DNA of 64,000 nucleotides from an uncultured Acidobacteriota bacterium (GTDB taxonomy: Bacteria; Actinomycetota; Acidimicrobiia; Spongiisociales; ZC4RG35): NCBI GenBank assembly GCA_963810465.1, contig CAWENM010000003.1:257578-321577 (forward strand), in the 5' to 3' direction. The notes beneath the pieces were generated by a model. It made no database searches and was not told where the DNA came from. It saw only the letters and a program-made list of their open reading frames with translations. Numbering within the stretch: position 1 is the stretch's first letter; each line of letters opens with the position of its first letter. Positions 38,299-59,741 of this stretch are shown here, piece by piece. The position numbers and the translations under genes are program-made.

Positions 38299-39197
38299 AG
38301 GTACCCGAGCGCCTCGAAGGGCAACGGGTCGACAAAGTACTGGCCGACCTGCTCCACTTGAGTCGTGCCCAGGCCCGAGCCCTGCTCGATGCGGGCGTGC
38401 TTCTCGACGGCGCTCCGGCCCGGCCCAGCGACCGGGTTCGCACCGGGGCGGTGGTCGTGTCCCCTGCGCCTGAGGTCGCCATTGGGCTCGTGGCCGAGCC
38501 GGTCGATTTCGGGGTGATCTACGAGGATCCAGACATGATCGTGGTCGATAAGCCCGCCGGCCTCGTCGTCCACCCTGGTTCCGGTCACGAGCGCTCCACT
38601 CTGGCGGCCGGCTTGCTTTATCGATATCCGGAGCTCGAGGGTGTGGGGGCAGTGGGGCGCTGGGGCCTGATCCATCGGCTCGACCGGGACACATCCGGCG
38701 TCCTGCTCGTTGGTCGAACGGCTGCATCCTTCGAGCGGCTCAACTCTGACATGGCACGACGACGGATACGAAGGCTCTACACGACGCTCGTTCATGGCAC
38801 CTTTGCCACCCCCACTGGAACCATCGACGCCCCGATCGGCCGTGATCCGGACCGGCCGACGAGGCGAGCTGTCGTCCCTGGTGGGAAACCTGCAGTCACC
38901 CATTACGAGGTCGTCGAGGAGTTCACCCCGGCGGATGTGTCTTTGCTCGAAGTGGCACTGGCGACGGGCCGCACCCACCAGATCAGGGTCCACATGACCG
39001 CCATCGATCACCCGATCGTCGGCGACAAGGCCTACTCGAGCATGAACAAGGCCGTCGAAAGCCCACGAATCTTCCTCCATGCCCAGCAGGTGAGTCTGCA
39101 TCATCCCGTCACCGAGGAGGAGCTCACCTTCACGTCGCCAGTGCCATCCGATCTGACCGAAGTCCTCGATTTCGTCCGTTCCGCGGAGGAGGGGTAA
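38277..39197 (+). CDS. rluD: RluA-family 23S rRNA pseudouridine synthase (RluD-like)
   Basis: GTG at 38277. S4-like N-terminal domain. HRLDRDTSGVLLVG has the catalytic Asp in the HRLD motif. KAYSSMNK C-terminal motif. lspA-rluD is a conserved pair. Confidence 0.85.
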   Translation: MADTLDLEVPERLEGQRVDKVLADLLHLSRAQARALLDAGVLLDGAPARPSDRVRTGAVVVSPAPEVAIGLVAEPVDFGVIYEDPDMIVVDKPAGLVVHPGSGHERSTLAAGLLYRYPELEGVGAVGRWGLIHRLDRDTSGVLLVGRTAASFERLNSDMARRRIRRLYTTLVHGTFATPTGTIDAPIGRDPDRPTRRAVVPGGKPAVTHYEVVEEFTPADVSLLEVALATGRTHQIRVHMTAIDHPIVGDKAYSSMNKAVESPRIFLHAQQVSLHHPVTEEELTFTSPVPSDLTEVLDFVRSAEEG

Positions 39198-39224
39198 GCC
39201 CATGACGGCGATACCGTTCCGGCC

Positions 39225-40052
39225 GTGACCCAGGATCACACCACAACGCCGGTCTGCTATCGGCACCCTGATCGGAGCACCCTGCTCAGCTGCAACCACT
39301 GTGGCCGGCCCATCTGTTCTTCGTGCTCGACCGACGCCTCGGTCGGGCAGCGCTGTCCTGAGTGCATGAGAGAGGAGGGGACGCAAAAGGTGATCCCCAC
39401 CGGATCCCGAAGCCGAACGACTGCGACGTCGGGCGCACCGGCCACCGTGACCTTCATCGCCGTGGCGGTGATCTTCTACCTGCTCGACGCCTTCGGCATC
39501 GTGGAAGGACTGGTGCCCCGCTTTGCCCAGATAAACGTCCTTGTCGAGGAAGGTGAGTGGTGGCGGATCTTCACCGTGGTCCTGCTCCACGGGTCTATCA
39601 CCCACATCCTGTTCAACATGTGGGCGCTGTGGGCGCTCGGTCCCCAAATCGAGCGTGGGGTGGGAACATGGCCTTTCATCAGTCTTTTTCTGGCCTCGGC
39701 CGGGGTCGGTGGGGTCTTTGCCTATTACCTGGGAGATATCAACGACATTGCTATCGGTGCCTCCGGCGCCATCTTCGGTCTGTTCGGCATCTGGCTGAGC
39801 TGGGCGCTGCACCGGAGAAACACGATGCAGGGGAGGGCATTGCTCAGCCAGCTGATCTTCCTCCTCGTCATCAACGCAGCCATCCCTTTCGTATTCAGGA
39901 ACATCTCGTGGCAGGCTCACCTGGGCGGGCTCATCGCCGGGTTTGTGATAGGCGAGATCTGGAGCCGGATCAGAGGCCCCAATGCGGAGGCGATGCGGGC
40001 CTGGGTCGGCTTCGCCATCGCAGCGCTGGCCGCACTGGCCGTCGCCATCTGA
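39225..40052 (+). CDS. Rhomboid-family intramembrane serine protease with N-terminal zinc ribbon
   Basis: N-terminal CYRHP...CNHCGRPICSSCS...CPEC (4-Cys ribbon). Rhomboid core has the catalytic GASGAIFGL Ser and a downstream His (AHLGGLIAGF). Confidence 0.8.
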   Translation: MTQDHTTTPVCYRHPDRSTLLSCNHCGRPICSSCSTDASVGQRCPECMREEGTQKVIPTGSRSRTTATSGAPATVTFIAVAVIFYLLDAFGIVEGLVPRFAQINVLVEEGEWWRIFTVVLLHGSITHILFNMWALWALGPQIERGVGTWPFISLFLASAGVGGVFAYYLGDINDIAIGASGAIFGLFGIWLSWALHRRNTMQGRALLSQLIFLLVINAAIPFVFRNISWQAHLGGLIAGFVIGEIWSRIRGPNAEAMRAWVGFAIAALAALAVAI

Positions 40053-40098
40053 CGGAATCCATGCTGTCCCGGTCGAGGTTGCCATCCTGGGAACGGCA

Positions 40099-41535
40099 AT
40101 GACGGTCCCCAAGTCGATCCTCTCCCGCGAGTTGCTGCCGGCGTCGGTCGCCATCTTCACGACCGTTGCCATCGTTGCCTTCGAGGGTCTGGCCGTCACC
40201 GCCGCCCTCCCCGACCTCACCGCCGAGCTCGGCCAGGTGCATCTCCTGCCGTGGGTCATCACTGCCTTTCTGCTGGCCTCGGGTGTGATGACCGCTATCG
40301 CCGGATCGTTCATCGATTCCGTCGGGACGTCCACCGTGTTCAGGTGGGCGACATTCGCCTTCGCCGCTTCCTCGCTCGCTGCCGCCGCTGCGGGATCGAT
40401 GCCGATGCTGGTCGCCACACGTGTTCTCCAGGGCGCCGCGGGCGGGGCAATCATCTCGGTCGGAGTGGGCGCCGTGGCCCTGGTCTATCCGAGCCATCTC
40501 GTCGGCAGAGCGTTTGCCGCCAATTCGAATGTGTGGGGCGTACTGGGCATCGCCGGTCCTGCCATCGCGGCGGCTTTGCTCCAGGTGGGCTCCTGGCGAT
40601 GGATCTTCTTGCTGATGGTGCCCATCTCTGCCGTGGCTCTGGTCGCGGGCTGGGGAACCCTGCCCGGCCCGGTCGATCCCGCCCCCCTTCGAGTCGACTG
40701 GGTGGCGGTCGGGTTGTTGGTAGTGACCTTCGGAGCTCTCTTGGCAGCAGTGTCGAACTTCTCGATGTTCTCGGCCATCTTCGCCGCGGTCGCGGTGCTG
40801 GCGGGGGTGGTGTTGTGGCGAAGGATGGCCCGGGGCCGATCGAGTTTGCTCGACCCCCGGTTTGTGGGGGCATACCCCTATCGCCAGCTCGCGCTGACGG
40901 TGTCGCTGACGTTGGTTGCCATGATCGGTCTGTCGTCGTATCTGCCCGTCTATGTCCGTGGCGCCCGGGGCGGCACGGCGGCCGCGGCAGCCTGGTCGGT
41001 CTTGTGGCTCACCCTTGGGTGGACCACGGCCGCCAACATCTCCGGTCGCATCACCGATCGGGTGAGTGAGCGGGCTGTGCTCCGGGTGGCAGCGATCGGG
41101 GGAGTTCCCGCCATCGCCGCTGCTTGGGCCGCTGTCTCCTTCTCGGCCCCGCTACCGGTCGTCTATGCCTGCTACTTCGCAATGGGAATGTCTGTGGGTG
41201 CGGTGACCAACTCCGCGTTTCAGATGGTGCGTCTTGCGGTTGCCGACAACCTGGCAGGCCGGGCAACGTCAGCCCATGCCTTCCTGCGTACCGTCGGGAT
41301 GTCGGTTGGGGCAGGCCTGGCCGGGGGAGTGATCCTGGCAACGGTGGCGGCCTCGGTAGGCGACATCTCTACGGTTCGGGAGGCTCTGGCGGGGGCCGCG
41401 ACGGATCTGGCTGGTCCAACAGCGACCGCCCTGGCGGACGGCTTCTCGATCGCCCATGGGGTGAGTCTGATGATCATGCTGACGGCAGTCATGATTTCGA
41501 GGCGTCTGGGGAGCGACGTGAAAACTGGAACCTAA
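40099..41535 (+). CDS. MFS transporter (drug:H+ antiporter-like, about 14 TM)
   Basis: ATG at 40099 (MTVPKSIL...). Fourteen hydrophobic segments. MFS motif A-like region (ATRVLQGAAGGAII). Confidence 0.75.
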   Translation: MTVPKSILSRELLPASVAIFTTVAIVAFEGLAVTAALPDLTAELGQVHLLPWVITAFLLASGVMTAIAGSFIDSVGTSTVFRWATFAFAASSLAAAAAGSMPMLVATRVLQGAAGGAIISVGVGAVALVYPSHLVGRAFAANSNVWGVLGIAGPAIAAALLQVGSWRWIFLLMVPISAVALVAGWGTLPGPVDPAPLRVDWVAVGLLVVTFGALLAAVSNFSMFSAIFAAVAVLAGVVLWRRMARGRSSLLDPRFVGAYPYRQLALTVSLTLVAMIGLSSYLPVYVRGARGGTAAAAAWSVLWLTLGWTTAANISGRITDRVSERAVLRVAAIGGVPAIAAAWAAVSFSAPLPVVYACYFAMGMSVGAVTNSAFQMVRLAVADNLAGRATSAHAFLRTVGMSVGAGLAGGVILATVAASVGDISTVREALAGAATDLAGPTATALADGFSIAHGVSLMIMLTAVMISRRLGSDVKTGT

Positions 41536-44500: not shown

Positions 44501-45091
44501 AAGGAGATGCTCGGTCTGTACGTCTCCGATCATCCACTTCTCTCGGTCGGCCAGTCCCTGGCGGCGGCGACGACCACGACCATCAGTCAGCTCGATGAGC
44601 TGGCGGACAAGACGAGCGTGACAGTGGGCGGGCTGGTGGCCGGCATCACCCGCCGATGGACCAGAAATGGGGATCCGATGATCTTCTTCCAACTCGAAGA
44701 CCTCGAGGGATCGGTCGAAGTCGTCGCTTTCCCCCGCACCGTCAACGACTACGGGCACGCTGTCATCGAGGATGCGGTGGTGATAGTCAACGGGCATCTC
44801 GATCACCGCGGCGACGAAGTGAAGGTCATGGCCCGGGAGATCAAAGAGCTCGAGATCCGTGACGACGCGACGGTGCGTCTCAAGACGCCTGCATCGAGTC
44901 TCACTCCCGAGATGGTGGCGCGGCTAAAGACAATCCTCTCCAATCACCCGGGCCCCGCCCCGGTGTACCTGAATATGACCAGCGAACAAGGGATGAAGGT
45001 GCTCAAGCTCAGCGATGCGCACCGCGTCGAGCCACGGACAGCGCTGTTCGCCGAGTTGAAGGAACTGTTGGGGCCGAGCGCGATTCTCTAG
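41585..45091 (+). CDS. dnaE: DNA polymerase III alpha subunit (DnaE1)
   Basis: PHP domain with FAHLHVHTEYSMLDGA; the polymerase core, OB fold and other catalytic motifs are present. 1168 aa. Confidence 0.92.
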   Translation: MTAVSFAHLHVHTEYSMLDGAARIKDVVAAAAADGQPAIAITDHGVLYGVVDFVKEAKAAGIKPIVGIEAYLTEGSRFDRPVGNANRRFHMNLLAENEVGYRNLLQLSSRAFLEGYYYKPRMDFELLAEHSEGIIATSGCLGGMVAQLLAPDSMSEEGNKGQMRDFDAAMASAGRFQDIFGKDNFFIEVQDHGLAAQRAIMPDLIEISSRTGAPLLATNDAHYTHRAEHDAHDVLLCIQTGSLRAETSRLRFEGNEHYLKTAEEMQRLFPADTFPGACDNTLSIAERVDVDLDFGRILLPSFPVPSDETEVSYLRRLVDQGARDRYGHDAASEVWDRVEHELKIIEEMGFPAYFLIVWDLIRHARESGIRVGPGRGSAAGSIVSYCLRITDIDPLAYGLIFERFLNPGRRQMPDIDMDFDERYRADMIKYAAQKYGPDRVAQIVTFSTIKGKQALRDAARVLGHPYGVGDRVAKAMPAAILGREATLEQVMTPPPSDADSTAKDWYANAQGLRDLYEADPAVRETVDAARGLEGLRRQDSIHAAAVVIAPEPLINVVPIQQKGEGAEVVTQYEMYGVESLGLLKMDFLGLRNLSIIERCLELVEEGTGERVDIDGVQLDDAKTFELLQSGNTIGVFQLEGNAMRSLIRSLKPDSFDDVIALVALYRPGPMGANMHNLYADRKNGRAPIEELHPALTDKLADTYQIMVYQEQVMSVAQEMAGYSMVDADNLRRAMGKKIKAVMKAEEEKFVAGSVAQGHDEKVGREIFGLIEHFSGYGFNKSHSSGYGLVAYQTAFLKAHHPAEYLAALLTATKKDKDRTAIYLNECRQMRIEVLVPDVNESDSDFTVKDSRIRFGLSAVRNVGEGVVEKVVEARAEGPFDSFHDFVDRVDVSALNKRTVESLIKAGAFDAMGYPRKGLTVVFEQILDATLERRRNEDMGQFSLFAGEPGEVSHGRIEVPDLIWPQKIKLAFEKEMLGLYVSDHPLLSVGQSLAAATTTTISQLDELADKTSVTVGGLVAGITRRWTRNGDPMIFFQLEDLEGSVEVVAFPRTVNDYGHAVIEDAVVIVNGHLDHRGDEVKVMAREIKELEIRDDATVRLKTPASSLTPEMVARLKTILSNHPGPAPVYLNMTSEQGMKVLKLSDAHRVEPRTALFAELKELLGPSAIL

Positions 45092-45897
45092 GACCGCAGG
45101 CGCCAGATCTCCCGCTGGGCCATCTGGGCCAGGGCAGACGAGCGTCCGTGCTTTCGTCCCAGGGCATACGCGCCAACCGCGGCCGCCACACCGAGACTTC
45201 CAAGGGCGCTGAGCGCAATTGCCCTCTTCGTCTTTCGGGCGAAGATCACGACCGGCCAGCCTCGCTCATGGGAGACCGAATCGAGCTCGGAGTCCGGATT
45301 GACCGCCACAGGGTGGCCTACCAATTCCATCATGGGCAGGTCGGAGATCGAGTCGGAGTAGGCGTAGCTGCGTTCCAGGTCATACCCGAAGTCGGCTGCG
45401 ATCTTCTCGATGGCGTCGACTTTGCCTGCGCCGTACACAAATGGCCCATCGAGCTCTCCGGTGTAGTGGCCGGCGACCACCTTTCCCCTCGTGCCGATGG
45501 CTCCGGTCATCCCCAACGAACGGGCCAGAGGCTCAACGATCTCGTGAGGGGCGGCAGAGACGATCCAGGTATCCCTCCCCGCCTCGTGGTGCAGGTTGAT
45601 GAGCTTTCGTGACTCGGGGCGGACCCGGGCGACCAGTTTGGGCAGGACGGCGGCACCGACCATCTCGAGAGCCTGGACCGACGCACCGGCGATCCCACTC
45701 AAGAAGTCGCCCTTGACATCGTCGGTGGCGTCACCCTTGTCGCCTAACAGACGGAAACTCAACGCCGATACCGCCCAGCGGCCGATATCGGGGTTGGAGG
45801 CGATGCCCTGGCGCCATGCTTCCACGCCGAGGGGGAAGGCGGACGCGCCGGAGATCAGGGTCCGGTCGAGGTCGAAGAATGCGGCTGAGTTAGCCAT
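45088..45897 (-). CDS. HAD-IB family hydrolase
   Basis: FFDLDRTL (DxDxT catalytic motif) at the N-terminus. A HAD-IB-like cap and C-terminal TM tail. 4-nt overlap with the dnaE stop (convergent). Confidence 0.7.
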   Translation of the reverse strand: MANSAAFFDLDRTLISGASAFPLGVEAWRQGIASNPDIGRWAVSALSFRLLGDKGDATDDVKGDFLSGIAGASVQALEMVGAAVLPKLVARVRPESRKLINLHHEAGRDTWIVSAAPHEIVEPLARSLGMTGAIGTRGKVVAGHYTGELDGPFVYGAGKVDAIEKIAADFGYDLERSYAYSDSISDLPMMELVGHPVAVNPDSELDSVSHERGWPVVIFARKTKRAIALSALGSLGVAAAVGAYALGRKHGRSSALAQMAQREIWRLRS

Positions 45898-45901: not shown

Positions 45902-46936
45902 TCAGGATATGCCTACCTCGGCCCATGGCAACTCACTCGATTCGTCGAGCAGCCGTGCGAGCCCGTCCAGATCGGTCGGAGGGGTCGGTGACCAGGGGAT
46001 GGTGGCTATGTGCGCTCCGTATCTCGAGGAGAACTCCTCGCGGGAGTCGCGTTGGCGCACTGTCTCCGCGCTCCACCGGGCCAGATTCTGTTCCAAGGCC
46101 AGCGAGGTCCCGGGTGGCGCGGTCGCATCCGCCCACTCGTCCGGCAGGATTCGATTGAAGACGACCGCGGCGGGGCTGGTCGCCAGGCCGGGCAGGTCGC
46201 GATAGAACTTGATGGCCTCGCGTACCGGGGCCGGGTCGGAGGAAGTCACCACGAAGATCGACGCCGAGCTGAGGACGCGCTCGATCTCGCGACCCCGCTG
46301 CGCCACGCCGTCGTAGGTGGTCCTCAAGTCGAGCAGGAACTCGGCAACGCGCTCCAACAGGTCGGAGCCGAGCACCGAGTCGGCGATCCGGAGCACCGGC
46401 TTGGCGGCGAGGTTGTAGAAGGCCCGGCGCCCGGGGAGCGGACCCCCCGTCAGCCATCGGAGAAGCCGTCCTCCGACGAGATCGGCCATCTGGGCCGGGG
46501 CGGCGAAGAAGTCGATTCCTCCACCCGACGGCGGTGTGTCCACGATGACGAGATCCCAAGCCATCGCTTGCACGAAGGTGGCAGCCTGATCGGCCGCGGC
46601 GTACGACTGCGAGGCCGGAAAATGCTCCGATGCCGCCCGGAAGAAATCGTTGTCGGCCAGGCGGGTTGCCACCTCGGGGTCGGCGTGCCGCATCGCCACC
46701 GCCCGCCAGGAGGCGGTGGAGTCGAGCATGGCTGCCCAGAGATTGGGCTCGTCCGAGTGCGGCTGGGGCTCATTTCCCAGGTCTTCGACTCCTAATGCCG
46801 TTGCCAGCCGGCGAGCAGGGTCGACGGTTACCACGAGGGTGCGCAGACCGCTTCGGGCTGCCCTGACTCCGAGGGCGGCGGCGACGGTGGTCTTGCCGAC
46901 GCCTCCGGCGCCGGTGATGAGCAGGGTGCGCGTCAC
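45902..46936 (-). CDS. ArsA/Get3-family P-loop ATPase (paired with the next gene; equivalent to the mycobacterial Rv3679/Rv3680-type pair)
   Basis: The N-terminal deviant Walker A LITGAGGVGKTTVAAALG is characteristic of the ArsA/Get3/MinD superfamily. 344 aa. Confidence 0.7.
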   Translation of the reverse strand: MTRTLLITGAGGVGKTTVAAALGVRAARSGLRTLVVTVDPARRLATALGVEDLGNEPQPHSDEPNLWAAMLDSTASWRAVAMRHADPEVATRLADNDFFRAASEHFPASQSYAAADQAATFVQAMAWDLVIVDTPPSGGGIDFFAAPAQMADLVGGRLLRWLTGGPLPGRRAFYNLAAKPVLRIADSVLGSDLLERVAEFLLDLRTTYDGVAQRGREIERVLSSASIFVVTSSDPAPVREAIKFYRDLPGLATSPAAVVFNRILPDEWADATAPPGTSLALEQNLARWSAETVRQRDSREEFSSRYGAHIATIPWSPTPPTDLDGLARLLDESSELPWAEVGIS

Positions 46937-47805
46937 GTGATCTGCTCGAACTCGTCGGCCATACGAGCCGCCACCTCACCGGGTGTGAAGAGGCCGTGGA
47001 GGTAGGGAAGCAGGTGGTCGGGAGGCAGCCTCTCCAGCCAGACCTGCTGCTCTGACCACAGGGCCCGATGGAGCTGTGCCGCCTCTCCCACCGGCCCCGG
47101 CGGCGTCTCCGGGTCGGTCAACTCGTCGAGGATGCGGTTCCCCATCACGGTCGGGGCCGCCACGACCTCTTCCTTGGCCAGCCAGGTGATGGACTCTTCG
47201 GTCTCGGTGGTGGGTAGCTCCTCAGGGAGGGTGACGAGGACGAGCCCTGTGACCGTCTGATCGCGAAGGATCTCCCGCATGATCTCGGCCTGGACCCGGA
47301 TCCGCCCGGAAGGAACCAGCTCGGAGATCGTGACGGGTGCCCGGAGGAAGGACCCGATCTGGCCGGTCGGCGGGGCATCGGCGATGACAATGTCCCATCG
47401 ATCCTCCCGAACCTCCCAGATCGCCTTGCCGACGGTGATGATCTCCCTGATCCCAGGGGCTGTGGTGGCCAGTGCATCGAACGCCCTGGCCAGGGGGCCG
47501 AACCTGTTGAGACCCTTGATGTTCAGCTGAAGGGCGAGGTACTCGAGAAGGGCGTCGGAGCGGACCATCTGCATGGCATGAAGCCCTGGCCTCAGCTCTC
47601 TCGGCTCGAATTCGAGAGGGCCGGTGCCGAAATGTGCCGAGAGACCACCAGGGGAGCCCATCTCCATGGCCAGGACCCGTAGACCCCGGCGCTGGGCGAG
47701 GAGGGCGAGACCGGCGCTCACCGCGGACTTGCCGACCCCTCCCTTGCCCGAGACGAGGACGAGACGTTTCTCGAGCATGTGGCGAGCTGGGCTAGCCGGA
47801 CCCAC
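46933..47805 (-). CDS. ArsA/Get3-family P-loop ATPase (second of the pair)
   Basis: VLVSGKGGVGKSAVSAGLA P-loop. ATGA overlap with the downstream paralogue. The true start is probably MLEKRLVLVSG at 47778. Confidence 0.7.
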   Translation of the reverse strand: MGPASPARHMLEKRLVLVSGKGGVGKSAVSAGLALLAQRRGLRVLAMEMGSPGGLSAHFGTGPLEFEPRELRPGLHAMQMVRSDALLEYLALQLNIKGLNRFGPLARAFDALATTAPGIREIITVGKAIWEVREDRWDIVIADAPPTGQIGSFLRAPVTISELVPSGRIRVQAEIMREILRDQTVTGLVLVTLPEELPTTETEESITWLAKEEVVAAPTVMGNRILDELTDPETPPGPVGEAAQLHRALWSEQQVWLERLPPDHLLPYLHGLFTPGEVAARMADEFEQIT

Positions 47806-48013
47806 CGAGTGGAATGCGAAGGACGAGCTCGCCGTCCTCCACGCTCCAGCTGGCGGTCCCGATCAGGGCGTAGTCGGTGTAGTCGGCTTCCGCCCGCTCC
47901 ACGAACAGTCTTCGCTCGTCGCCCGCAACTGGAGGGAGGGGGCGCTCCTTGACGGCAGCGGCGCGCTCCTGATAACGCACCAGCATGGCGTCGACATCGA
48001 ATTGGGCCATGCG
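47792..48013 (-). CDS. Small hypothetical protein (about 73 aa)
   Basis: ORF from ATG 48013 (MAQFDVDAMLVRYQERAAAVKERP...) ends inside the start region of the ArsA-like gene. No recognisable family and no clear Shine-Dalgarno. Confidence 0.35.
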   Translation of the reverse strand, partial: RMAQFDVDAMLVRYQERAAAVKERPLPPVAGDERRLFVERAEADYTDYALIGTASWSVEDGELVLRIPLGGSG

Positions 48014-48020: not shown

Positions 48021-48047
48021 GTACTTGGTACTTGGTACTTGGTACTA
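48021..48047. repeat. Tandem heptamer repeat GTACTTG x3 (plus a degenerate fourth) in an intergenic spacer
   Basis: Seen directly: GGTACTTGGTACTTGGTACTTGGTACTAGG. The last unit carries the TAG stop (minus strand) of the ThyX-like gene. AT-rich relative to the genome. Confidence 0.7.
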
Positions 48048-49667
48048 GGACTGGCTGGCCAAGCGGCGCCGGCTCTCGGCTTTGCGCTCACTCTCGAGCC
48101 GTTCCAGGTCGACGTCGCTGTAGTCGACGTAGCTCATTGCCTCGGCGATCAAATGGTGACCGGCCACCTCATCGATGGCGCGGTGCATCTCATGGGCAAC
48201 CCGGCGGTAGGCCGGATGCCCGGCCGCCTGGCTGCGCAGCTCGATGAGATGGAAGGCCTGCCTGGGGTTCATCTCCATGACGAAGCGCACGTTGAAGGCA
48301 AATGGCACCACGTATTGGGCCACATCGGCGCCAAGGTCCGTCCGCAGCACTTCGTAGAATTCGAGAGACTGAGCCATCAGTCGATGCCATTCGTCGGCGA
48401 GGCCCAGTTCCTCGACTTCTGCCGGAAGGTCATAACCGAGTCGGGTCGTGTACCGCTGCCATTCCAGCGTCATCAGACGATGACGTTGAAGGTCGCGGAA
48501 CGCCCCGATGTCACAGGTGACATCGAACCGGTAGGTGGTTCGCTCCATGGCCCGCCCCGGCCGATGTCTCCGATTCGCCCGATCCCCGACGAGAGAGGCA
48601 ATGATGCTTGCCCTCTCTGACTGGGTCATCGAAGTGGCTATTTGGAGAAGCTCAGCATCGGGCAACTCCGAGACGGCGTAGAGGGCAGCCGCGGCGATCT
48701 TGAGCTCCGCATCGGGGTCCCAGTCGACCAGAGTCACGGATGGTCCGTGGTCAGAGGGCGACTGAAGCCCGGATGCTCGCTGCTCGAGCCCTGAGCGGAC
48801 GTCTTCCAGATATCGGGACCAGCGCACCCCACGGTCGTCCAGATCGACCCGCGTGAGGAACGACGGGATGATCTTCCGTAGCTCACCGAGCATCATCTCC
48901 CCGTACTGCTGCACCTCGCGCAACGGGTTGGCCCGCATCCTGACCAGGGACATCTCGTAAGCCTGCCCGGTGCCGTAGATGCCGACGTTGGATTGTGTCG
49001 ACACCGGAAGCAGGCCCCGTACCGTGTCGCACGCCTTGGCCCGGATCGTCGCATTCCAAATTCCCACCGAGTCGTCCTCTCCCCGGGGATGCAACACTTC
49101 GAAATGGGCCGTCGTCCTGGCCACCATGCTCGAATAGGTGTCGAAGACATGCTCCATGTGGCCGAGATATCGCCCCGCATGAGATGACGTGGTGATCTCA
49201 GGAGGGACGAAGTACCTGTAGCGGTCCCCAAGACGCGCGTCGTAGCGGATATAGCGGGTCGATTGCTCCAGATAGGCGGCGAGACGGCCCCACTCCAGGA
49301 CCTTGGTCAGGAGGTTCGAGGCCTGTTCGCATGCGAGGTGGGCGCCGCCGAGTTGGGCGACTGAGTCGTCTCCGTAGTCGAAGAAGACCCGTTGATACAA
49401 CTGTTCCGCTTTGCGAGTTGCCACCAACGGGTCATCGTCGAGACCCCGGGCCATGGCGTCGATCCCGGAATCGGGATCGGCCACGAACTCGTCGAGGAAG
49501 AGCCGTCGCAGCGACTTCGCCGACCTCGAATACCGGGCGAAGAGTGCTCCCTTGACCACCTCCGGGAGATTGATCAACCCGAACACCGGCAGGTCGAGAT
49601 TGGTGAAAAACCGATTGAGGACGGCCTTCTCCTCGGCGGTGAACTCCTCTTGGTGGTACGACGTCAC
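48045..49667 (-). CDS. Tandem ThyX-like (FAD-dependent thymidylate synthase, Thy1 fold) two-domain protein, function unknown
   Basis: 540 aa. The C-terminal half carries the ThyX signature, RHR then 7 residues then QRY (FRDLQRHRLMTLEWQRYT). The N-terminal half carries a degenerate copy (GRLAAYLEQSTRYIRY, aligning to RHRxASYNQQSGRYV) and an N-terminal ALFARYSRS segment like the ThyX AARVCYSS region. Confidence 0.5.
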   Translation of the reverse strand: MTSYHQEEFTAEEKAVLNRFFTNLDLPVFGLINLPEVVKGALFARYSRSAKSLRRLFLDEFVADPDSGIDAMARGLDDDPLVATRKAEQLYQRVFFDYGDDSVAQLGGAHLACEQASNLLTKVLEWGRLAAYLEQSTRYIRYDARLGDRYRYFVPPEITTSSHAGRYLGHMEHVFDTYSSMVARTTAHFEVLHPRGEDDSVGIWNATIRAKACDTVRGLLPVSTQSNVGIYGTGQAYEMSLVRMRANPLREVQQYGEMMLGELRKIIPSFLTRVDLDDRGVRWSRYLEDVRSGLEQRASGLQSPSDHGPSVTLVDWDPDAELKIAAAALYAVSELPDAELLQIATSMTQSERASIIASLVGDRANRRHRPGRAMERTTYRFDVTCDIGAFRDLQRHRLMTLEWQRYTTRLGYDLPAEVEELGLADEWHRLMAQSLEFYEVLRTDLGADVAQYVVPFAFNVRFVMEMNPRQAFHLIELRSQAAGHPAYRRVAHEMHRAIDEVAGHHLIAEAMSYVDYSDVDLERLESERKAESRRRLASQS

Positions 49668-49723
49668 GGGCCGGCGATTGTATGCCTGGAAACTGGGCGC
49701 ACCCGGTTACCGTTTTAAGGGCA

Positions 49724-50002
49724 ATGTCCGTCTTCCTGGTGCGTCTCGGTGTGTTCATACTCTCTGCAACGGCAATCGGCATTGCATTGATACCGATCCT
49801 CGTTCTCATCGACTTGCTGGACGGGGGCACAGGCTGGGGACTCTGCCCACAGGGCATCGAAGCCTGCAGCAACCCGTACACCACGGCCGCCGAGTTCGGG
49901 ATCGTCCTGACAATCGGGTTGTTCCTGTCGGTGCTGGGGATCCGCTTACTGATGAAGCTGGCCCGACGTCTCCGCTCCGACGACTACCAGGTGAGTCAAT
50001 GA
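49724..50002 (+). CDS. Small membrane protein (hypothetical, 2 TM)
   Basis: ATG 49724 MSVFLVRLGVFILSATAIGIALIPILVLIDLL ... IVLTIGLFLSVLGI. Good hydrophobic periodicity and no homology recognised. Confidence 0.4.
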   Translation: MSVFLVRLGVFILSATAIGIALIPILVLIDLLDGGTGWGLCPQGIEACSNPYTTAAEFGIVLTIGLFLSVLGIRLLMKLARRLRSDDYQVSQ

Positions 50003-52957: not shown

Positions 52958-54204
52958 CCTCGTGTCTCGGGGAGGAGCAGGGTGAGCAAGGCGGCGATCA
53001 CCATCCCGACACCGAGGATCGTGACCGTCTGGGAGAGGCCGAATCGATCGATGGTGAAGATCCCAAGGATCAGCCCGAGCCCGGACCCGACCAAGCCGAA
53101 GTTCGTCGCCGCGGTGTTGGCGCTGGCCCTGAGCCCCGTGGGGAACAGCTCGGCCCGATGAGAGCCTCCGGCCGGGACGAATGCGAATGTGCCGAACGAC
53201 GACACCATGACGGCCACGACTATCAGCGGGACCGAGGTGGACCAGTAGATGACGAGACCACCTCCGACAGCAAGGAGGAGACTCACCACCGTCGTCCTTC
53301 GACGGCCCAAGCTGTCGGCCAGGTGCCCGCCGACGAAGAAGCCGAGCCCGCCGAGGGTCCCGCCGAGGAGGGCGATCAGAACCGTCGAGCCGGTGCTGAG
53401 CCCGAGATATTCGATCATGCGTGTGGTGGAGAACGCGAGGGCGACCGCCGAGAAGGCGGAGACGAGGAAGGCGATGATCACCACTATCCAGAAGCGACGT
53501 GCCCATTCCCCGGTGGCCAGTTCTCGCCAGTGCCTGTCCTCGTGATCTTCGAGAAAGATGTGGCTCTCCGGCACGTTGCGAATCAGGAACGGGAGCACGA
53601 GGAAACCGAGGGCGATCATCAGATGCGGAATCCGCCAGCTCTGACCACCTCCGTCGGCCAGTGGGAGGGTCATCAACGCCAAGCCTCCGCCGAAGGACAC
53701 CGCTGCCCCATAGAAGGAAATCGCATAAGCGCGGATGTGAGGTGAGACCTGCTCGGCGAGAAGGACGATGGCCAGGCCTCCCATCCCGGCAGTCCCGGTG
53801 CGCAGGATCGCCTGGGCGGTCCCGAACTGCCACGCCTCGAAGACGAGACCGGCCAGGGTGCCCCCGACAATCACCAGGGTGAGGGACCACAGGAAAGGGC
53901 GCCTCCGCCCTTTGTGGTCTCCGAGCCACCCCAGAGGGAGGGCGGCGAAGGCGGCGAGTCGGGCGAGGCCGAGCAGAAGGCTCATCTCACCCTCGGTGAG
54001 CCCTAGACCGGCGCGTGTGAACGGAAGCGTTGCCGCGGCCTGGGACTGGGCGAAGCCTTGGATGACTCCGGCTGTCCAGATGATGAACACGATTCGGCGA
54101 TCGCCCGAGGTGAACCTCTCCACCGGGAGCAACGGGCCCAGAACGCGTCGCAGCCACGGTGCCACGAGTCGAGAGTAGAGGGGCACGCGTGCGATCATCC
54201 CCAC
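52921..54204 (-). CDS. MFS transporter
   Basis: Twelve TM helices. MFS motif-A-like DHKGRRRPF loop and a second-half GRRRT loop. Convergent with the MATE gene with a 37-nt overlap. Confidence 0.75.
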   Translation of the reverse strand: MGMIARVPLYSRLVAPWLRRVLGPLLPVERFTSGDRRIVFIIWTAGVIQGFAQSQAAATLPFTRAGLGLTEGEMSLLLGLARLAAFAALPLGWLGDHKGRRRPFLWSLTLVIVGGTLAGLVFEAWQFGTAQAILRTGTAGMGGLAIVLLAEQVSPHIRAYAISFYGAAVSFGGGLALMTLPLADGGGQSWRIPHLMIALGFLVLPFLIRNVPESHIFLEDHEDRHWRELATGEWARRFWIVVIIAFLVSAFSAVALAFSTTRMIEYLGLSTGSTVLIALLGGTLGGLGFFVGGHLADSLGRRRTTVVSLLLAVGGGLVIYWSTSVPLIVVAVMVSSFGTFAFVPAGGSHRAELFPTGLRASANTAATNFGLVGSGLGLILGIFTIDRFGLSQTVTILGVGMVIAALLTLLLPETRGQDLRAIRTARL

Positions 54205-54232
54205 ACTTCGGCTAATTCACCGGGGAACCAAA

Positions 54233-55003
54233 GTGTTCGACAGCGTCGACTCGGCCGCCTACATCGTCCAGATCCTGATCGCTTTCGGGGCGGGGATCAT
54301 CTCGTTCGTATCTCCGTGCGTCCTGCCCCTTCTGCCCGGCTATCTATCGATGATGTCTGGCTACTCGGCGAGCCAGCTGGAGGAGGGCGATGTGTCCACG
54401 GCCCGGATGACCCGGGTAATCCTCCTCTTCATCGCAGGCTTCACTGTCGTGTTCGTCGCCCTTGGCGCAATCGCTACCGGTCTCCGCACCTGGCTGGTGC
54501 AGAACCTGACGACATTCACCCGGCTGGCCGGGCTGACCGTGATCGTCTTCGGAGTGCTCATGGTGGCCATGGCGGTGTCCGATCGAGGTCCGCTCGCCAC
54601 AGTTGGGAGGGAGCGCAGGCTCGATGTCCGCCCCAGTCGGCTCGGGTCGTGGGGTCCCCCTGTCATGGGGCTGGCCTTCGGATTCGCCTGGACGCCTTGC
54701 ATCGGACCGGTCCTCACCGTGATCCTCGCCACAGCCTCGCTCCAGGAGACTCTCGGCCAGGGCATGCTGCTCCTTCTCGCCTATTCCCTTGGACTCGGAG
54801 TGCCCTTCCTCCTGAGCGGCCTCGGGCTGTTCAAGCTGTTCGGGCGGCTCAAGCCCTACCTGCGTCCGATCAACATCGCTTCGGGAGTGTTGTTGACCCT
54901 GTTCGGCGTTCTCATGTTGACTGGAAACGTGGGCACCTTGTCGAGCTGGTTCTCTGACGTTCTGCTCTCGATACCGTTCCTCCGTGACCTGGCGACGATC
55001 TGA
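54233..55003 (+). CDS. ccdA: Cytochrome c-type biogenesis / thiol-disulfide transfer membrane protein CcdA (DsbD family)
   Basis: SPCVLPLLPGYLS and TPCIGP carry the two conserved Cys. Six TM helices. Confidence 0.88.
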   Translation: MFDSVDSAAYIVQILIAFGAGIISFVSPCVLPLLPGYLSMMSGYSASQLEEGDVSTARMTRVILLFIAGFTVVFVALGAIATGLRTWLVQNLTTFTRLAGLTVIVFGVLMVAMAVSDRGPLATVGRERRLDVRPSRLGSWGPPVMGLAFGFAWTPCIGPVLTVILATASLQETLGQGMLLLLAYSLGLGVPFLLSGLGLFKLFGRLKPYLRPINIASGVLLTLFGVLMLTGNVGTLSSWFSDVLLSIPFLRDLATI

Positions 55004-55822
55004 ATGAGCCTCACCGAGCCGCATCTGGCCCCGTCGGCACCCGAGCTGGTTTGGTTCGGAGGCGCCGATGCGATCCGTTTCCTCAATGATTTGATCAGTC
55101 AGGAGATCGGCGACATGGAGCCCGGGTCGGTCCGACGATCGCTGCTGCTCACGCCGCAGGGCAAGCTCGACCACATCCTCTGGGTTCTCCGAGGAGACGA
55201 TGAGGTGGGCTTGGTGGTGGATGCCGACCAGGGCGAGGATCTGGCAGCCAAGCTGGGCCGTTATCGGATCCGGGTCGATGTCGAGATCGCTCCGTCGACC
55301 CTCGAGCGGTGGCTCGTCGTTGCGCCGTTCGGGGCGGATCCCGGGCGGTGGACTGGCGATCGTGGCGAATTGATGGCCGACGTGTCCTGGTCGAACCTCG
55401 AGCGGACGCTGGTGGTGGGGGAGAGGCCGGACCTTCCGTGATGGAAGTCGAGGATTACGAGTCTGCTGCGCATTGAAGCCGGGGAGCCACTGATGGGCGT
55501 GGATGTCACCGACGCCACCATCCCTCAGGAGACCGGTCTCGTCGCGGAGACGATCTCATTCAACAAGGGGTGCTTTCTCGGTCAGGAGTTGGTAGCCCGT
55601 CTCGACAGTCGGGGAGGACGGGTCAACCACCATCTCCGCATCCTGCGCTTCGACGGTTCGGCGCCGGAGGTGGGCACCGAGGTCACCAAGGATGGCGAGC
55701 AGGTGGGGGTGCTCAGCTCGGCAGCAGACCGTATCGGGCTGGCATTACTCCGGCGGGGGGTCGAACCGGGGGATACGGTGACGGTGGGTGACGGTCGAGC
55801 GTCGGTGGATGCGGTTCCGTAG
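55004..55822 (+). pseudogene. YgfZ/GcvT-like folate-binding protein interrupted by an in-frame TGA at 55439-55441
   Basis: ORF 55004..55441 has the N-terminal GcvT-like domain. The same reading frame continues right after the TGA with WKSRITSLLRIEAGEPLMGVDV...FNKGCFLGQELVARLDSRG, the YgfZ KGCY(F)xGQE signature. ORF 55493..55822 in the track is that downstream portion. Confidence 0.75.
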
Positions 55823-55856
55823 AGTGACCCGCTCGGGCGTAGACATCAGCCACGTG

Positions 55857-55940
55857 TGCCGGAGGCGGGATTCGAACCCGCACGGGGTTTCCCCCAATGG
55901 TGTTTGAGACCATATTGTCTACCAGTTCCAACACTCCGGC
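55857..55940 (-). tRNA. tRNA-Leu (anticodon CAA), class II with long variable arm; CCA not encoded
   Basis: Reverse complement folds as acceptor GCCGGAG/CTCCGGC, D-stem TTG/CAA with GGTAGA loop, anticodon stem ATGGT/ACCAT with loop CTCAAAC, 15-nt variable arm, T-arm GCGGG-TTCGAAT-CCCGC, discriminator A. Closely parallels E. coli tRNA-Leu(CAA). Confidence 0.9.
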
Positions 55941-55951
55941 GTGACCACATT

Positions 55952-56769
55952 TTACCGGTCAATGCTTGGGACCGATAAAGGTGTCCATATAGGCCACATC
56001 TTCACGGCGGGCGATCGAAATGTCACGCGGGGTGGTCTGCGTCCAATGACTCCGAGCAGATCTAGGGCGTCGGTGAAGATCCCCAGGATGTCGGTGGAAA
56101 CATTGGTGAACATGTAGCGCGGATAGCGATAACGCCGGGGACCGGATCGGAGCTTCCGGATCACTTCGTTGACGTGCCGGTTGCCGTCAGAATGGATCAG
56201 ACCACGGACCAGGGCCTTGGGATGACCAGCAATGATCACGTCCTGCCACCGTTCGAGCTCGATGTGACGATTGTGTTTGCGGCCAGGGCCATGTTGCGGG
56301 AAGAGGCAAAGCCAGTGTTTCCAGTCGGAGTAGACCTCGACGCATCCCTTCTTCGAGATGAACCCCACTTGCTCGGTGGCTCGGGTGACGACGATTGAGC
56401 CGGCGATCTCGTCGATGATGTCGGGTACTTGAGGTCACACACGATCCGCAAGCGATAGACGTCCCGAGGCACGAGGCAGAGGCAGCCGTCGCCCAAGTAG
56501 GCCCCGAGGAGATATGCATACGCCTCCTCGTCGACCCATCCGCCGATGCATCGAAAGCAGGTGGCTTGGCGTCTGCCGGACCAAAATTTGGTGCGGCCAC
56601 CGCTACCCGAAGCCACGCCGACCCGCCAGTCTCGAATCGTGCCGCGGGGAATCCCGAGACGACGGCCGATCTCGCAGTCGTTGATCCCGATGTCGATCAG
56701 TTGGATAGCTCGGCGGTATTCCTCTTCCGACCTCATGACGTGAACCCTTTCTTCGAAGGTACAAGCCAC
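55952..56769 (-). pseudogene. Free-standing HTH plus double-LAGLIDADG homing-endonuclease-like gene, frameshifted (-1)
   Basis: ORF 56236..56769 has an HTH (IQLIDIGINDCEIGRRLGIPRGTIRDWR) and a first LAGLIDADG motif (YLLGAYLGDGCL). ORF 55952..56368 in another frame carries the second motif (KALVRGLIHSDGN). Adding 1 nt after codons CDLKYP joins them into about 270 aa (…CDLKYPDIIDEIAGSIVVTRATEQVGFISKKG…). Confidence 0.65.
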
Positions 56770-56826
56770 CTAGGACAGAATCGACGTTGTCGATATCGCC
56801 GAATAGGGGGATACCCTGCGCATGTC

Positions 56827-57102
56827 GTGAAGCGCGTCCACCGCCGGCTGTTTCGGCTCAATGATCAGATCGACTCCCTCAACCGGGAGTTGCGGTTGGT
56901 GAACGCTGAGCTCTCCAATCATCGCTCGATCGACGAGGACGCCCAGCGTGATGCGGTCGTGGGCAACTACATCGATCGTGAAGAGGCGGGGCGAACGGCA
57001 GGCGATGTCCGTCGGTTCGAGAGGACCGCCTTCTATCTCCGGGTTCGTCGAGCCAAGCTGATCAAGACCAGGGATCGACTGCTCACCCGTCTGCCCGACT
57101 GA
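56827..57102 (+). CDS. Small coiled-coil hypothetical protein (91 aa from GTG)
   Basis: ORF in the 56566..57102 frame from GTG 56827 (VKRVHRRLFRLNDQIDSLNRELRLVNAELSN...). No family recognised. Sits between the endonuclease remnant and polA. Confidence 0.3.
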   Translation: MKRVHRRLFRLNDQIDSLNRELRLVNAELSNHRSIDEDAQRDAVVGNYIDREEAGRTAGDVRRFERTAFYLRVRRAKLIKTRDRLLTRLPD

Positions 57103-57128
57103 TCGGGCACGCCGCTACCGTCAGCCTC

Positions 57129-59741
57129 GTGCCCACACTTGCCCTGATCGACGGTAACTCCGTCGCTTATCGGGCCTTCTACGCCCTCCCCGAGGACCTG
57201 GCGACCAAGGGCGGCCAGGTGACGAATGCAGTGTTCGGATTTACCCGGATGCTGATCAGGCTGCTCAAGGACTACCACCCTGATGGCATCGCTGTCGCCT
57301 GGGACGTGTCCCGTCAGACCTTTCGAACCGAGTCTTATCCGGAGTACAAGGCGCAACGAGAGAAGGCGCCGGATCACTTCCGCAGCCAGCTGCCACTGAT
57401 GGACGAAGTGCTGCAGACGCTCAACATCACCCAGCTCAGGGCGGAGGGTTTCGAGGCGGACGACATCATCGCCACTCTCGCCAGGAATGGGGTAGCCGCC
57501 GGATGGGAGGTCCTCATCGTCACAGGTGACCGCGACGCATTTCAGCTGATCGAAGGGGCTGTGAAGGTGGTCTACACACGCCGCGGCATCAGCGACATCG
57601 TCCTGGCGGACGATGCGTATGTCGAGGAGAAGTACGGCATCAGACCCGACCAGTACGTCGAGTACGCGGCCCTGAGAGGCGACACGTCGGACAATCTGCC
57701 CGGCGTGCCCGGAGTGGGGGAGAAGACGGCCTCACGACTGATCGCCGACCACGGTGACCTGGACAACTTGTTCCTGGCCGTGACCGACCTGACACCGAAG
57801 CTCAGGGAAAACCTGTCCGCACATCGTGAGCAGGTCTTCCTCAACAGGGAGCTCATGCGCCTCATCGACGACATGGATCTGGGGGTCGAGATCGAGGGCC
57901 TTCGCACCAAGGAGTGGGATCGGAATCAGGTCAAAGATCTGTTCGACAGTCTCGAGTTTCACTCCATGTGGAACGACCTGGAACAAGCCCTTCCCTCGGC
58001 CGCCACGCAGTCAGAGCTCGTGGAAGTCGAGTCGTTCCTTGTCACCATGCCCGATCAGGTCGCCGCCATGGCGAAGGAGCCCGTCCTCATCGCGGGATTG
58101 GTGAACGATGGCGGCGAGCCCTTCGGGCTTGCCGTTTCCAGGGGTCCCGGGGAGGCGGCCGTGGTGCCTTTCGATTCGGCCGGCCCACTTCTCGACGCCC
58201 TCGAGAACGGGCAGGCGGCCCTTGCCGGTCACGATGTGAAGGACCTTGTGCGGGTGTTGCTCGAGATGGACCGCGACGTGGACCGGCTGGCGATGGACAC
58301 CGCACTTGCCGCCTACATCGTCAACCCGTCACAACGCACTTATGACCTCGAGGAGCTGGCGGACCGTCTGCTCGGACTCGAGCTGGTCTCGCCGGATGAC
58401 GACGGCGCGGCTCTGGGAACCTTGCCGTTCGACAGCGGGCCCGATCTCGAGACCGAGGGCCGCAGGATCGAAGGCGTTCGGCGGCTGGTCGAAGTCATGC
58501 GCTCCGAGTTGTCCGACCGCGAGGAAGGCGAGCTCTTCGAGGAGTTCGAGCTCCCCTTGATCCCGGTCCTCGCCCGAATGGAGCACGCCGGCATCGCGGT
58601 GGACCGCGCCTATCTCGAGAATATGGGCGCCGACTTGAGGGAGAAACTCACCGCCCTCGACGCCCGGATCCAGGAGCTGGCGGGGGAGCAGTTCAACGTC
58701 AACTCGACCGACCAGCTCCGCTATGTCCTCTTCGAGAAGTTGGCGCTCCCGGTGATCAAGAAGACCTCCACGGGCAAGCCATCCACCGACGCCTCCGTCT
58801 TGAAGAAGCTGGATCATCCTGTGGTTGAGGCCCTCCTCGAGTACCGGGAGTACGAGAAGTTACGGGGCACGTATGTCGACGGGTATCTGCCATTGGTCGA
58901 CCCCGACGGTCGAATCAGGACCCGGTTCAATCAGATGGCGGCGACGACCGGGCGCTTGTCTTCCGATCGTCCCAATCTGCAGAACATCCCGATACGTTCC
59001 GAGTCGGGCCGCACCATTCGCCGTGCCTTCATCGCCGGGGAAGGCGCGGAGTTCCTGGTGGCCGACTACTCCCAGATCGAGTTGAGGGTCCTGGCTCACA
59101 TGAGCGGGGACCCCTTCCTGGTGGAGGCTTTCCGTTCCGGCTCCGACATCCACACCGCCACCGCGGCTCGGGTTTGGGGGCTTACCGAGCCCGACGTGAC
59201 CGCCAATCAGCGCCGCACGGCCAAGATGATCAACTTTGGCCTGCTCTATGGGATGGAGGCATTTGGACTGGCCGACCGTCTCGGCATCTCACGGGACGAG
59301 GCGCAACAGCACATGGATGCCTACTTCTCACAGTTCGTGCAGGTCAAGGAGTTCATGTCGGCGATGGTCACCCAGGCCCGGAACCAGGGCTACACCACGA
59401 CGCTCTTTGGGCGACGGCGCTATCTGCCTGAGCTCAAGTCGGACAACTTCCGCATTCGTCAGATGGGTGAGCGCATGGCCCTGAACGCCCCTGTCCAAGG
59501 CACTGCCGCCGACATAATCAAGAAGGCGATGATCGATCTCGACGCCAGTCTGCGATCCGAGGGGCTGGCCTCCACATTGATCCTCCAGATCCATGACGAG
59601 CTCATTTTGGAGAGCCCACTCGATGAGCTGGAGGTCGCGGAGAAGCTGGTAGTGGGGACGATGGAGGGCGTGGTCGCCCTCGATGTGCCGCTCGACGTCG
59701 ATGTGGCCACCGGCCCCGATCTGGCATCGGTGAAGAGCTGA
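57129..59741 (+). CDS. polA: DNA polymerase I
   Basis: 5'-3' exonuclease domain (LALIDGNSVAYRAFYA), vestigial 3'-5' exo region, and Pol A motifs (DYSQIELR motif A, KMINFGLLYG motif B, QIHDELIL motif C). 870 aa. Confidence 0.92.
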   Translation: MPTLALIDGNSVAYRAFYALPEDLATKGGQVTNAVFGFTRMLIRLLKDYHPDGIAVAWDVSRQTFRTESYPEYKAQREKAPDHFRSQLPLMDEVLQTLNITQLRAEGFEADDIIATLARNGVAAGWEVLIVTGDRDAFQLIEGAVKVVYTRRGISDIVLADDAYVEEKYGIRPDQYVEYAALRGDTSDNLPGVPGVGEKTASRLIADHGDLDNLFLAVTDLTPKLRENLSAHREQVFLNRELMRLIDDMDLGVEIEGLRTKEWDRNQVKDLFDSLEFHSMWNDLEQALPSAATQSELVEVESFLVTMPDQVAAMAKEPVLIAGLVNDGGEPFGLAVSRGPGEAAVVPFDSAGPLLDALENGQAALAGHDVKDLVRVLLEMDRDVDRLAMDTALAAYIVNPSQRTYDLEELADRLLGLELVSPDDDGAALGTLPFDSGPDLETEGRRIEGVRRLVEVMRSELSDREEGELFEEFELPLIPVLARMEHAGIAVDRAYLENMGADLREKLTALDARIQELAGEQFNVNSTDQLRYVLFEKLALPVIKKTSTGKPSTDASVLKKLDHPVVEALLEYREYEKLRGTYVDGYLPLVDPDGRIRTRFNQMAATTGRLSSDRPNLQNIPIRSESGRTIRRAFIAGEGAEFLVADYSQIELRVLAHMSGDPFLVEAFRSGSDIHTATAARVWGLTEPDVTANQRRTAKMINFGLLYGMEAFGLADRLGISRDEAQQHMDAYFSQFVQVKEFMSAMVTQARNQGYTTTLFGRRRYLPELKSDNFRIRQMGERMALNAPVQGTAADIIKKAMIDLDASLRSEGLASTLILQIHDELILESPLDELEVAEKLVVGTMEGVVALDVPLDVDVATGPDLASVKS

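Follow-up and report, generated by a model that had tools for sequence, protein, structure and literature searches.

Introduction

Flavin-dependent thymidylate synthase (FDTS; EC 2.1.1.148), the product of the thyX gene, is known from Thermotoga maritima (TM0449), Mycobacterium tuberculosis (Rv2754c), Helicobacter pylori and PBCV-1 as a homotetramer with four identical active sites. The enzyme makes an essential DNA precursor, and interest in it comes both from the search for antibacterial targets and from its use as a model for methyl transfer mediated by flavin. Here, we describe a thyX-like gene in a 64,000-nucleotide stretch of DNA from an uncultured bacterium of the Acidimicrobiia (contig CAWENM010000003.1); this whole stretch is called the window below. 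The gene encodes a protein of 540 amino acids (aa) with two ThyX-type domains in a single chain. The N- and C-terminal domains are degenerate in complementary ways, and the catalytic signature is divided between them. Judging from its sequence, the gene probably encodes a fused, two-domain flavin-dependent thymidylate synthase, which would convert deoxyuridine monophosphate (dUMP), with methylene-tetrahydrofolate and reduced nicotinamide adenine dinucleotide phosphate (NADPH), to thymidine monophosphate (dTMP).

The active site of canonical ThyX is contributed by three subunits, designated A, B and C (PMC6514825). Subunit A provides the RHR triplet, which binds the phosphates and ribityl chain of flavin adenine dinucleotide (FAD) and through its first Arg also touches dUMP, together with Arg199 in M. 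tuberculosis (Mtb) numbering or Arg174 in H. pylori (Hp) numbering (PMC6514825). In Mtb numbering, subunit C contributes Arg87, Ser105, Arg107 and the Tyr108 lid, and subunit B contributes Ser71 and Arg190 (PMC6514825). According to reviews of ThyX, it was mixed-mutant experiments that located the active site between subunits.

In sequence surveys, ThyX has been recognized by its motif. One evolutionary survey uses the presence of RHR-x7-S within one domain as its criterion, after Myllykallio 2002, and allows its candidates a deviation of no more than two residues from RHRX7S (PMC2826268).

Two Thy1 domains in one chain

The gene and the domains found in its product are located as follows.

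48045..49667, minus strand: thyX-like gene for a predicted 540-aa tandem flavin-dependent thymidylate synthase, GTG start
48861..49433, minus strand: N-terminal Thy1 domain (aa 79–269), from the Pfam match of the N-terminal half alone
48162..48734, minus strand: C-terminal Thy1 domain (aa 312–502), from the Pfam match of the C-terminal half alone

An earlier reading of the window from its letters alone (the preliminary description) had proposed this open reading frame (ORF), and it was confirmed: the same 540-aa protein is encoded on three metagenome contigs that are independent of each other and up to 451 kb long, and gene calling there gives the same GTG-start ORF. These three identical copies, together with thousands of full-length homologues, excluded an assembly or fusion artefact.

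The Pfam Thy1 profile (PF02511) matched two stretches of the protein, with a whole-protein E-value of 9e-41 and 140.2 bits, compared to a cutoff of 24.8 bits. When submitted separately, the N-terminal half matched profile positions 31–191 (1.8e-15, 57.6 bits) and the C-terminal half matched positions 1–189 (3e-24, 86.3 bits), so that each half is recognized by itself and the two hits expected for the protein are both present. The matches are far beyond chance, which disposes of the possibility that the motifs had arisen fortuitously within an unrelated fold.

Direct sequence searches of the PDB returned only marginal matches, with E-values of 0.008–0.09, and a fold search was required. The AlphaFold model used for this was built from a three-layer alignment; a shallow alignment of sequences with 74–96% identity reached a predicted local distance difference test (pLDDT) score of only 51.5, and that model was discarded. 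Both the model and the fold search showed that the tandem protein has the ThyX fold, with approximately 14–23% identity to solved ThyX structures. All solved structures matched are single-domain proteins, and none of the matches from the PDB sequence and fold searches is a structure of the tandem form. The Pfam halves, the model and the fold search together bear out the earlier suggestion of a fused pseudo-dimer of ThyX-fold domains.

When profiles of the N- and C-domains were compared by local hhalign, a single segment of 53 residues could be aligned; no more than this aligns because the two domains have diverged strongly. Forced-global hhalign alignments, either between the two domains or between each domain and the single T. 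maritima sequence, were unreliable.

A catalytic signature divided between the domains

Equivalent positions in the C-domain were taken from a HMMER profile alignment to T. maritima ThyX, and the conservation counts given below refer to 93 family sequences with 38–91% identity to the query. T. maritima numbering is abbreviated Tma. Two segments carry most of the recognizable signature.

48477..48485, minus strand: C-domain R395-H396-R397, equivalent to Tma R78-H79-R80, putative FAD- and dUMP-binding RHR in the ‘subunit A’ role by homology
49251..49286, minus strand: N-domain loop R128-LAAYL-E134-Q-S136-T-R138-Y139, equivalent to Tma R80...E86-x-S88-x-R90-Y91, putative dUMP-binding loop in the ‘subunit C’ role by homology

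In the C-domain, R395, H396 and R397 are invariant (93/93 each), as are R478 and R469, the equivalents of Tma R174 and R165. The preliminary description had reported a full RHR-x7-S-x-RY in this half, and the motif strings that it quoted are indeed present in the sequence. However, the domain reads R395-H396-R397-LMTLEW-Q404, with a loop that is shorter than in canonical ThyX and a Gln at the Ser88 position, found in 92 of the 93 sequences. The distance from RHR to the anchor Y412-x2-P415-x-E417 (Tma Y99...E104) is four residues shorter than in canonical ThyX. Positions 405–406, which happen to read ‘RY’ in the window protein, are variable and lineage-specific, and the Arg147 position is occupied by Q451 (Gln in 67 sequences).

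In the N-domain, the RHR position is taken by W126-G127-R128, in which the third Arg is retained. Across the family, position 126 is Asp or Trp and position 127 is Gly, Ala or Ser instead of Arg-His. The earlier reading of ‘GRL’ in place of RHR was off by one in register, but it was right that the downstream SxRY is kept. R128-x3-Y-x-E134-x-S136-x-R138-Y139 has exactly the spacing of Tma R80-x3-Y84-x-E86-x-S88-x-R90-Y91. R128, E134, S136, R138, Y139, R217, S102 and K122 are each found in all 93 sequences. Of these, R217 corresponds to Arg147, K122 to Arg74, and S102 to Thr55 in Tma and Ser71 in Mtb. Position 235, equivalent to R469 of the C-domain, is Arg in DPANN-type members and Gln in Acidimicrobiia.

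Thus, neither domain contains RHR-x7-S within itself, and the protein does not have one intact and one degenerate site, as had been proposed; both halves are degenerate, and they complement each other. Taken across both domains, the complete set of FAD/dUMP-contact residues (equivalents of RHR, Arg174, Ser88/Arg90/Tyr91, Ser/Thr55 and Arg165) is present, each in 93/93 sequences. We infer that these residues converge on one pocket. The same split signature recurs in 38 cluster representatives with 33–62% identity to the query and in two phage homologues.

A motif that is complete in neither domain could also be the mark of a catalytically dead pseudo-enzyme, that is, a regulatory or structural protein with a ThyX fold from both domains of which the canonical motif has gone, and the protein also scores below the curated thyX equivalog threshold (see below). 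We consider this very improbable. The losses are exactly complementary, and the residues kept for flavin and nucleotide contact and catalysis are invariant in bacteria, archaea and phages, a pattern that decay is not expected to yield and that argues against a dead protein. The gene context in a phage, described below, also points toward active dTMP synthesis.

Proposed assembly of the active site

The distribution of residues suggests how a fused ThyX might be assembled. An ancestral thyX would have been duplicated and then fused, after which different portions of the active-site signature would have been lost from each copy. The C-domain would have kept exactly the ‘A’ set, consisting of RHR and R478 (the Arg174 equivalent), while the N-domain would have kept exactly the ‘C’ set (the E-x-S-x-R-Y loop and R217) plus the ‘B’ Ser, S102. 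The ‘B’ Arg would be supplied as R469, in the C-domain. Two chains would then pair to form a pseudo-tetramer of four ThyX-fold domains, two N- and two C-domains arranged with D2 symmetry. Each live site would combine RHR and R478 of one C-domain with residues of both N-domains.

Since the N-domain lacks the Arg-His required for the ‘A’ role, and the C-domain lacks the Ser, Arg and Tyr of the ‘C’ role, exactly two of the four pseudo-sites would be complete in this arrangement. By this count, the dimer of the tandem protein should be a pseudo-tetramer with two live sites, the other two being dead.

Phage homologues

Two homologues with the same two-domain architecture were found in phages. Tunturiibacter phage Tunturi_5 (PP885688.1, locus L087 in our comparison), a jumbo phage, encodes gp50, a protein of 518 aa with two Thy1 stretches that matched with 89% query coverage and 26.5% identity. 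Gp020 of Microcystis phage Ma-LMM01 has 491 aa, and Foldseek aligned it over ~540 columns (TMq 0.56). The split is that of the window protein: E-x-S-x-R-Y and the equivalent of Arg147 are retained in the phage N-domains, whereas RHR, the equivalent of Arg174 and H484 are retained in the phage C-domains. The differences are the low identity to the window protein, only ~20–27%, and two positions in the active site: the phage N-domains retain the canonical His of G-H-x-S, where the window protein and its cellular relatives have G-D-D-S, and R469 of the window protein is not retained in the phages. With both His and Ser in the N-domain, and R469 not kept, the phage proteins suggest that the N-domains would give both the ‘B’ and the ‘C’ roles and the C-domain the ‘A’ role alone.

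In Tunturi_5, the genes at positions 1..4048 of the locus are, in order, a dUTPase, a DNA helicase, a dCMP deaminase and the tandem ThyX. The phage copy thus lies within a nucleotide-metabolism module, whereas the window copy adjoins ArsA-type ATPases. The dUTPase and the dCMP deaminase both make dUMP, the substrate of thymidylate synthase, and this context lends indirect support to a dTMP-forming role of the tandem ThyX. By its gene content, the Tunturi_5 module would serve dTMP supply.

Size and distribution of the family

The tandem form had been described as an unusual architecture, but it turned out to be common. In the first homologue search, at least 8000 candidates were scored, all of them passing; those listed were ~540 aa long, and the Acidimicrobiia proteins named among the matches listed were called ‘FAD-dependent thymidylate synthase’ or ‘thymidylate synthase ThyX’. 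An exhaustive search of 1.84 billion cluster representatives (clustered at 50% identity) gave 4373 matches with an E-value of 0.001 or less, of which 2891 reached 1e-10 or better and 941 reached 1e-30 or better. Among the 150 best, most representatives have 510–590 aa and align with nearly the full query, at identities down to ~34%.

Named genomes include Acidimicrobiia, with 57–94% identity, and Chloroflexota/Dehalococcoidia, with ~60%. The most divergent subgroup, with ~38–46% identity to the query, comes from DPANN archaea (such as Micrarchaeota, Woesearchaeota and Aenigmarchaeota), and one cluster is from a bacterium of the candidate phyla radiation (CPR). Taxonomic look-up of ten distant cluster representatives yielded almost nothing, and the profile search told more. 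The family is apparently widespread in several large, mostly uncultured lineages, among them lineages with very small genomes.

Searches of the literature on doubled or unusual ThyX architectures found no published description of the tandem form. Since the survey mentioned above discarded candidates that deviate from RHRX7S, it may have missed the tandem class; other surveys based on this motif may have excluded it as well, and censuses of thymidylate synthases could miscount such genomes. Because Microcystis cyanophages carry the tandem type, the ThyX of cyanobacteria may belong to the same class. A 2004 paper by Liu and Yang, reportedly concerned with distinctive ThyX motifs, is a possible lead as to architecture, and the biochemically characterized ThyX of Chlamydia trachomatis is said to have ~529 aa. 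Should either the cyanobacterial or the chlamydial ThyX turn out to be of the tandem form, the class would not be new, and if it is the chlamydial enzyme, a member would already have been assayed. The tandem type is a widespread, database-annotated and experimentally little-studied fused variant of a known enzyme.

Function of the tandem protein

The preliminary description could not place the protein in any described pathway. This was too strong, as the conserved residues fit the three-subunit ThyX site, the phage homologue belongs to a putative dTMP module, and the databases call such proteins ThyX: family members that carry a name are always annotated as ThyX or thymidylate synthase, whichever the source. 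We therefore favor a dTMP-forming enzyme. In the window, it is most likely, on the strength of these sequence comparisons, the housekeeping thymidylate synthase of the organism.

Several points weigh against this assignment. The window protein scores 62.1 bits against the NCBIfam thyX equivalog TIGR02170, below its cutoff of 87.9, and so do other tandem members (P0435, P0261, P0356, L086 and L087), four of which score 30.4, 42.1, 63.7 and 80.8 bits while one has no match. The tandem subfamily is covered by no curated model, and its database names presumably derive from less stringent criteria, for instance the Pfam domain. At the position of His53, presumably an important residue in T. maritima ThyX, the N-domain has D100 (93/93) and the C-domain has P370 (84/93). 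The register of the N-domain was derived from motif spacing, the secondary structure of the model and one local profile anchor. Dimerisation, the number of live sites, the domain that fills the ‘B’ role, the intramolecular interface and enzymatic activity itself we infer from the sequence, and searches of the literature and of the PDB found neither biochemistry nor a structure for any tandem member.

Other genes of thymidylate metabolism bear on the same question. A tblastn search found no thyA, folA or single-domain thyX in the 64-kb window or in 80 loci of ~17 kb, which cover a small fraction of the genomes, and probes for dCMP deaminase and dut likewise gave no match in the window or in the cellular loci, with the same small coverage. 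This search does not establish that thyA or canonical thyX is absent from the host genome, which is a further point on the negative side.

The loss of the His53 equivalent in the cellular family means that the reductive or the folate half-reaction may differ from that of canonical ThyX. More specifically, the presence of G-D-D-S for G-H-x-S might go with a different reductant or one-carbon donor, and the handling of reductant and folate by cellular tandem ThyX may accordingly not be the canonical one. An alternative reading is that the protein is a nucleotide methylase with a ThyX fold but another substrate or cofactor, either a UMP/dUMP methylase like PolB or an enzyme with some other reductant or one-carbon carrier. 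We regard this as unlikely. Every residue named as a nucleotide contact in ThyX (the first of the two Arg in RHR, the equivalent of Arg174, and Ser, Arg and Tyr in the loop) is kept without exception in either the N- or the C-domain; the tandem family is a conserved core gene of small-genome lineages; the phage homologue adjoins dUMP-producing enzymes; and in none of the loci examined does the gene lie within a secondary-metabolite cluster.

A more far-reaching version of the thymidylate synthase assignment can be offered only tentatively. Fused, split-motif ThyX could be a distinct, uncharacterised class, and in Acidimicrobiia, many Chloroflexota, DPANN archaea and CPR bacteria no other enzyme might form dTMP. 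Its asymmetry would then be obligatory, two sites being live and two dead, and it might handle the reductant or one-carbon donor differently, perhaps with a non-folate carrier in archaea.

Genomic neighbourhood

The tandem gene is followed on the same strand by four others.

47792..48010, minus strand: 72-aa ORF of unassigned function, from gene calls, 34 bp downstream of the thyX-like gene
46933..47778 (longest ORF to 47805), minus strand: BagA-like ArsA/Get3-type ATPase, 281 aa as called, Pfam ArsA_ATPase 1.8e-21
45902..46936, minus strand: BagB-like ArsA/Get3-type ATPase, 344 aa, Pfam ArsA_ATPase 1e-25, overlapping the BagA-like gene by 4 bp
45088..45897, minus strand: HAD-IB family hydrolase, final gene of the same-strand cluster, Pfam HAD 7.7e-32 and TIGR01490 161.9 bits (cutoff 98.3)

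Gaps of 34, 13, -4 and 4 bp separate the five genes, and terminator-like and promoter-like sites do not exceed their number in shuffled sequence. The thyX-like gene is probably the first gene of this compact cluster; nth lies upstream of it on the other strand. The small ORF, given as 73 aa in the preliminary description, has 72. In 70 ungapped orthologues, its third codon positions differ 2.5 times as often as the first and second, which indicates a real gene. Its product has the strongly conserved motif MA.FDVDAM..R...RA..V..RPLPPVAG.ER..F...A..D.TD and no relative in Pfam, NCBIfam or PDB.

A pair of ArsA/Get3-like ATPases in a compact same-strand cluster, in a region resembling that of nth and bagAB in mycobacteria, had been recognized from the letters alone, and this was confirmed: the best NCBIfam matches of the two ATPases are BagA (NF053622, 124.9 bits) and BagB (NF053621, 189.6 bits). 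The scores fall short of the equivalog cutoffs of 400 and 521 bits, respectively, and going by them the proteins would best be called BagA/BagB-like ArsA-family ATPases.

Upstream of the gene, we noted one candidate signal.

49677..49682, minus strand: TACAAT, possible -10 element, read from the sequence

The hexamer ends 9 nt before the GTG start of the thyX-like gene, and there is no obvious Shine–Dalgarno sequence. It was not reported by a consensus promoter scan, which demands two hexamers. Leaderless mRNAs are common in Actinomycetota, and the spacing would fit a possible leaderless thyX-like transcript. An upstream regulatory RNA was ruled out, as Rfam yields a single tRNA in the whole window.

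How far the neighbourhood is conserved depends on the lineage. The order nth, thyX-like gene, small ORF, bagA-like gene, bagB-like gene and dnaE is found in ~70 of 80 loci, all of one Acidimicrobiia sublineage. The preliminary description had called for a test of conservation across Actinomycetota; the order was conserved in this sublineage and not beyond it. The neighbours are unrelated in five Chloroflexota loci, in one DPANN archaeon and even in another actinomycetote with 57% identity, represented by a 4-Mb contig (L085). Rearrangements also occur within the Acidimicrobiia: in one locus (L074) the thyX-like gene points the other way from the cluster, and in six more distant loci the 72-aa ORF is on the opposite strand. 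No conserved partner gene of tandem ThyX was found beyond the one sublineage among the loci compared.

These observations bear on the idea that the products of all five genes form a stress-resistance module resembling mycobacterial BagAB, in which, for example, tandem ThyX, the 72-aa protein, both ATPases and the HAD hydrolase would protect or restore dTMP supply when the cell meets nitrosative stress or methylglyoxal. The close packing of the five genes, terminator-like sites no more numerous than in shuffled sequence and an order kept in most related loci, down to 57% identity, are in keeping with such a module, and in M. tuberculosis, BagAB is reported to counter toxicity that derives from glycerol or from nitric oxide (PMC10597346). 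We nevertheless find it unlikely, given that the link vanishes beyond one sublineage and that both the thyX-like gene and the small ORF can be flipped within the Acidimicrobiia. Mycobacterial bagAB is also not known to have an adjoining thyX. Being confined to one sublineage, the adjacency is not a property of the tandem ThyX family. It reads as lineage-specific gene order, perhaps with co-transcription, and with no dedicated functional partnership.

Other features of the window

A 92-aa ORF (49724..50002, plus strand) is divergent from the thyX-like gene. It is called on all three contigs, and its product is hydrophobic and membrane-like, with no Pfam match; its 3' end runs a few bases into the end of the EamA transporter gene, which is convergent to it. 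On one of the contigs that encode the identical ThyX (L082; ENA ERZ25039469 contig_55399), dnaE is called between 14700 and 21000 as several short fragments (132, 211 and 78 aa) with small ORFs lacking annotation after them, which suggests that the region is disrupted or misassembled in that sample.

Judging from the ORFs outside the stretch 18.9–32.3 kb, positions 1..41500 and 54000..64000 of the window are ordinary chromosomal core. The genes found there include an aminotransferase, a beta-eliminating lyase, fabD/fabH/fabF-like genes, dinB, a TgpA-like transglutaminase (931 aa) and ileS, as well as an rluD-like gene, MFS transporters, polA, ribosomal protein S1 and CpaB/CpaE-like Tad pilus genes. 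Between 18.9 and 32.3 kb, all ORFs are on the plus strand. The sole tRNA is tRNA-Leu(CAA) at 55856..55940 (minus strand).

Comparison with known systems

For the organism represented by the window, ordinary housekeeping thymidylate synthesis is the most likely role of the gene, and the link to the ATPases is a matter of local gene order. The wider interest lies in the division of the active site. The tandem family would be nature's equivalent of the mixed-mutant experiments, with two roles placed on two fused domains that evolve independently. From such a separation one can read which subunit has to supply which residues, and a half-of-sites enzyme is predicted.

The neighbourhood resembles that of mycobacterial BagA/BagB (Rv3679/Rv3680), which is likewise an adjacent pair of ArsA/Get3-type ATPases in a region with nth. 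It differs in that the window ATPases score far below the equivalog cutoffs and that the pair is preceded by the thyX-like gene and the 72-aa ORF. PolB, a UMP/dUMP C5-methylase of polyoxin biosynthesis (PDB 4p5a and 4p5b), is a single-domain protein encoded in an antibiotic gene cluster, whereas the window protein is a fused double domain encoded in a housekeeping region of the chromosome. Canonical ThyX has His53, to which the cellular tandem family has no equivalent, and it carries in one domain the motif that the tandem protein divides between two domains of the same chain. Where canonical ThyX is a tetramer with four sites, the tandem protein is predicted to be a dimer with two.

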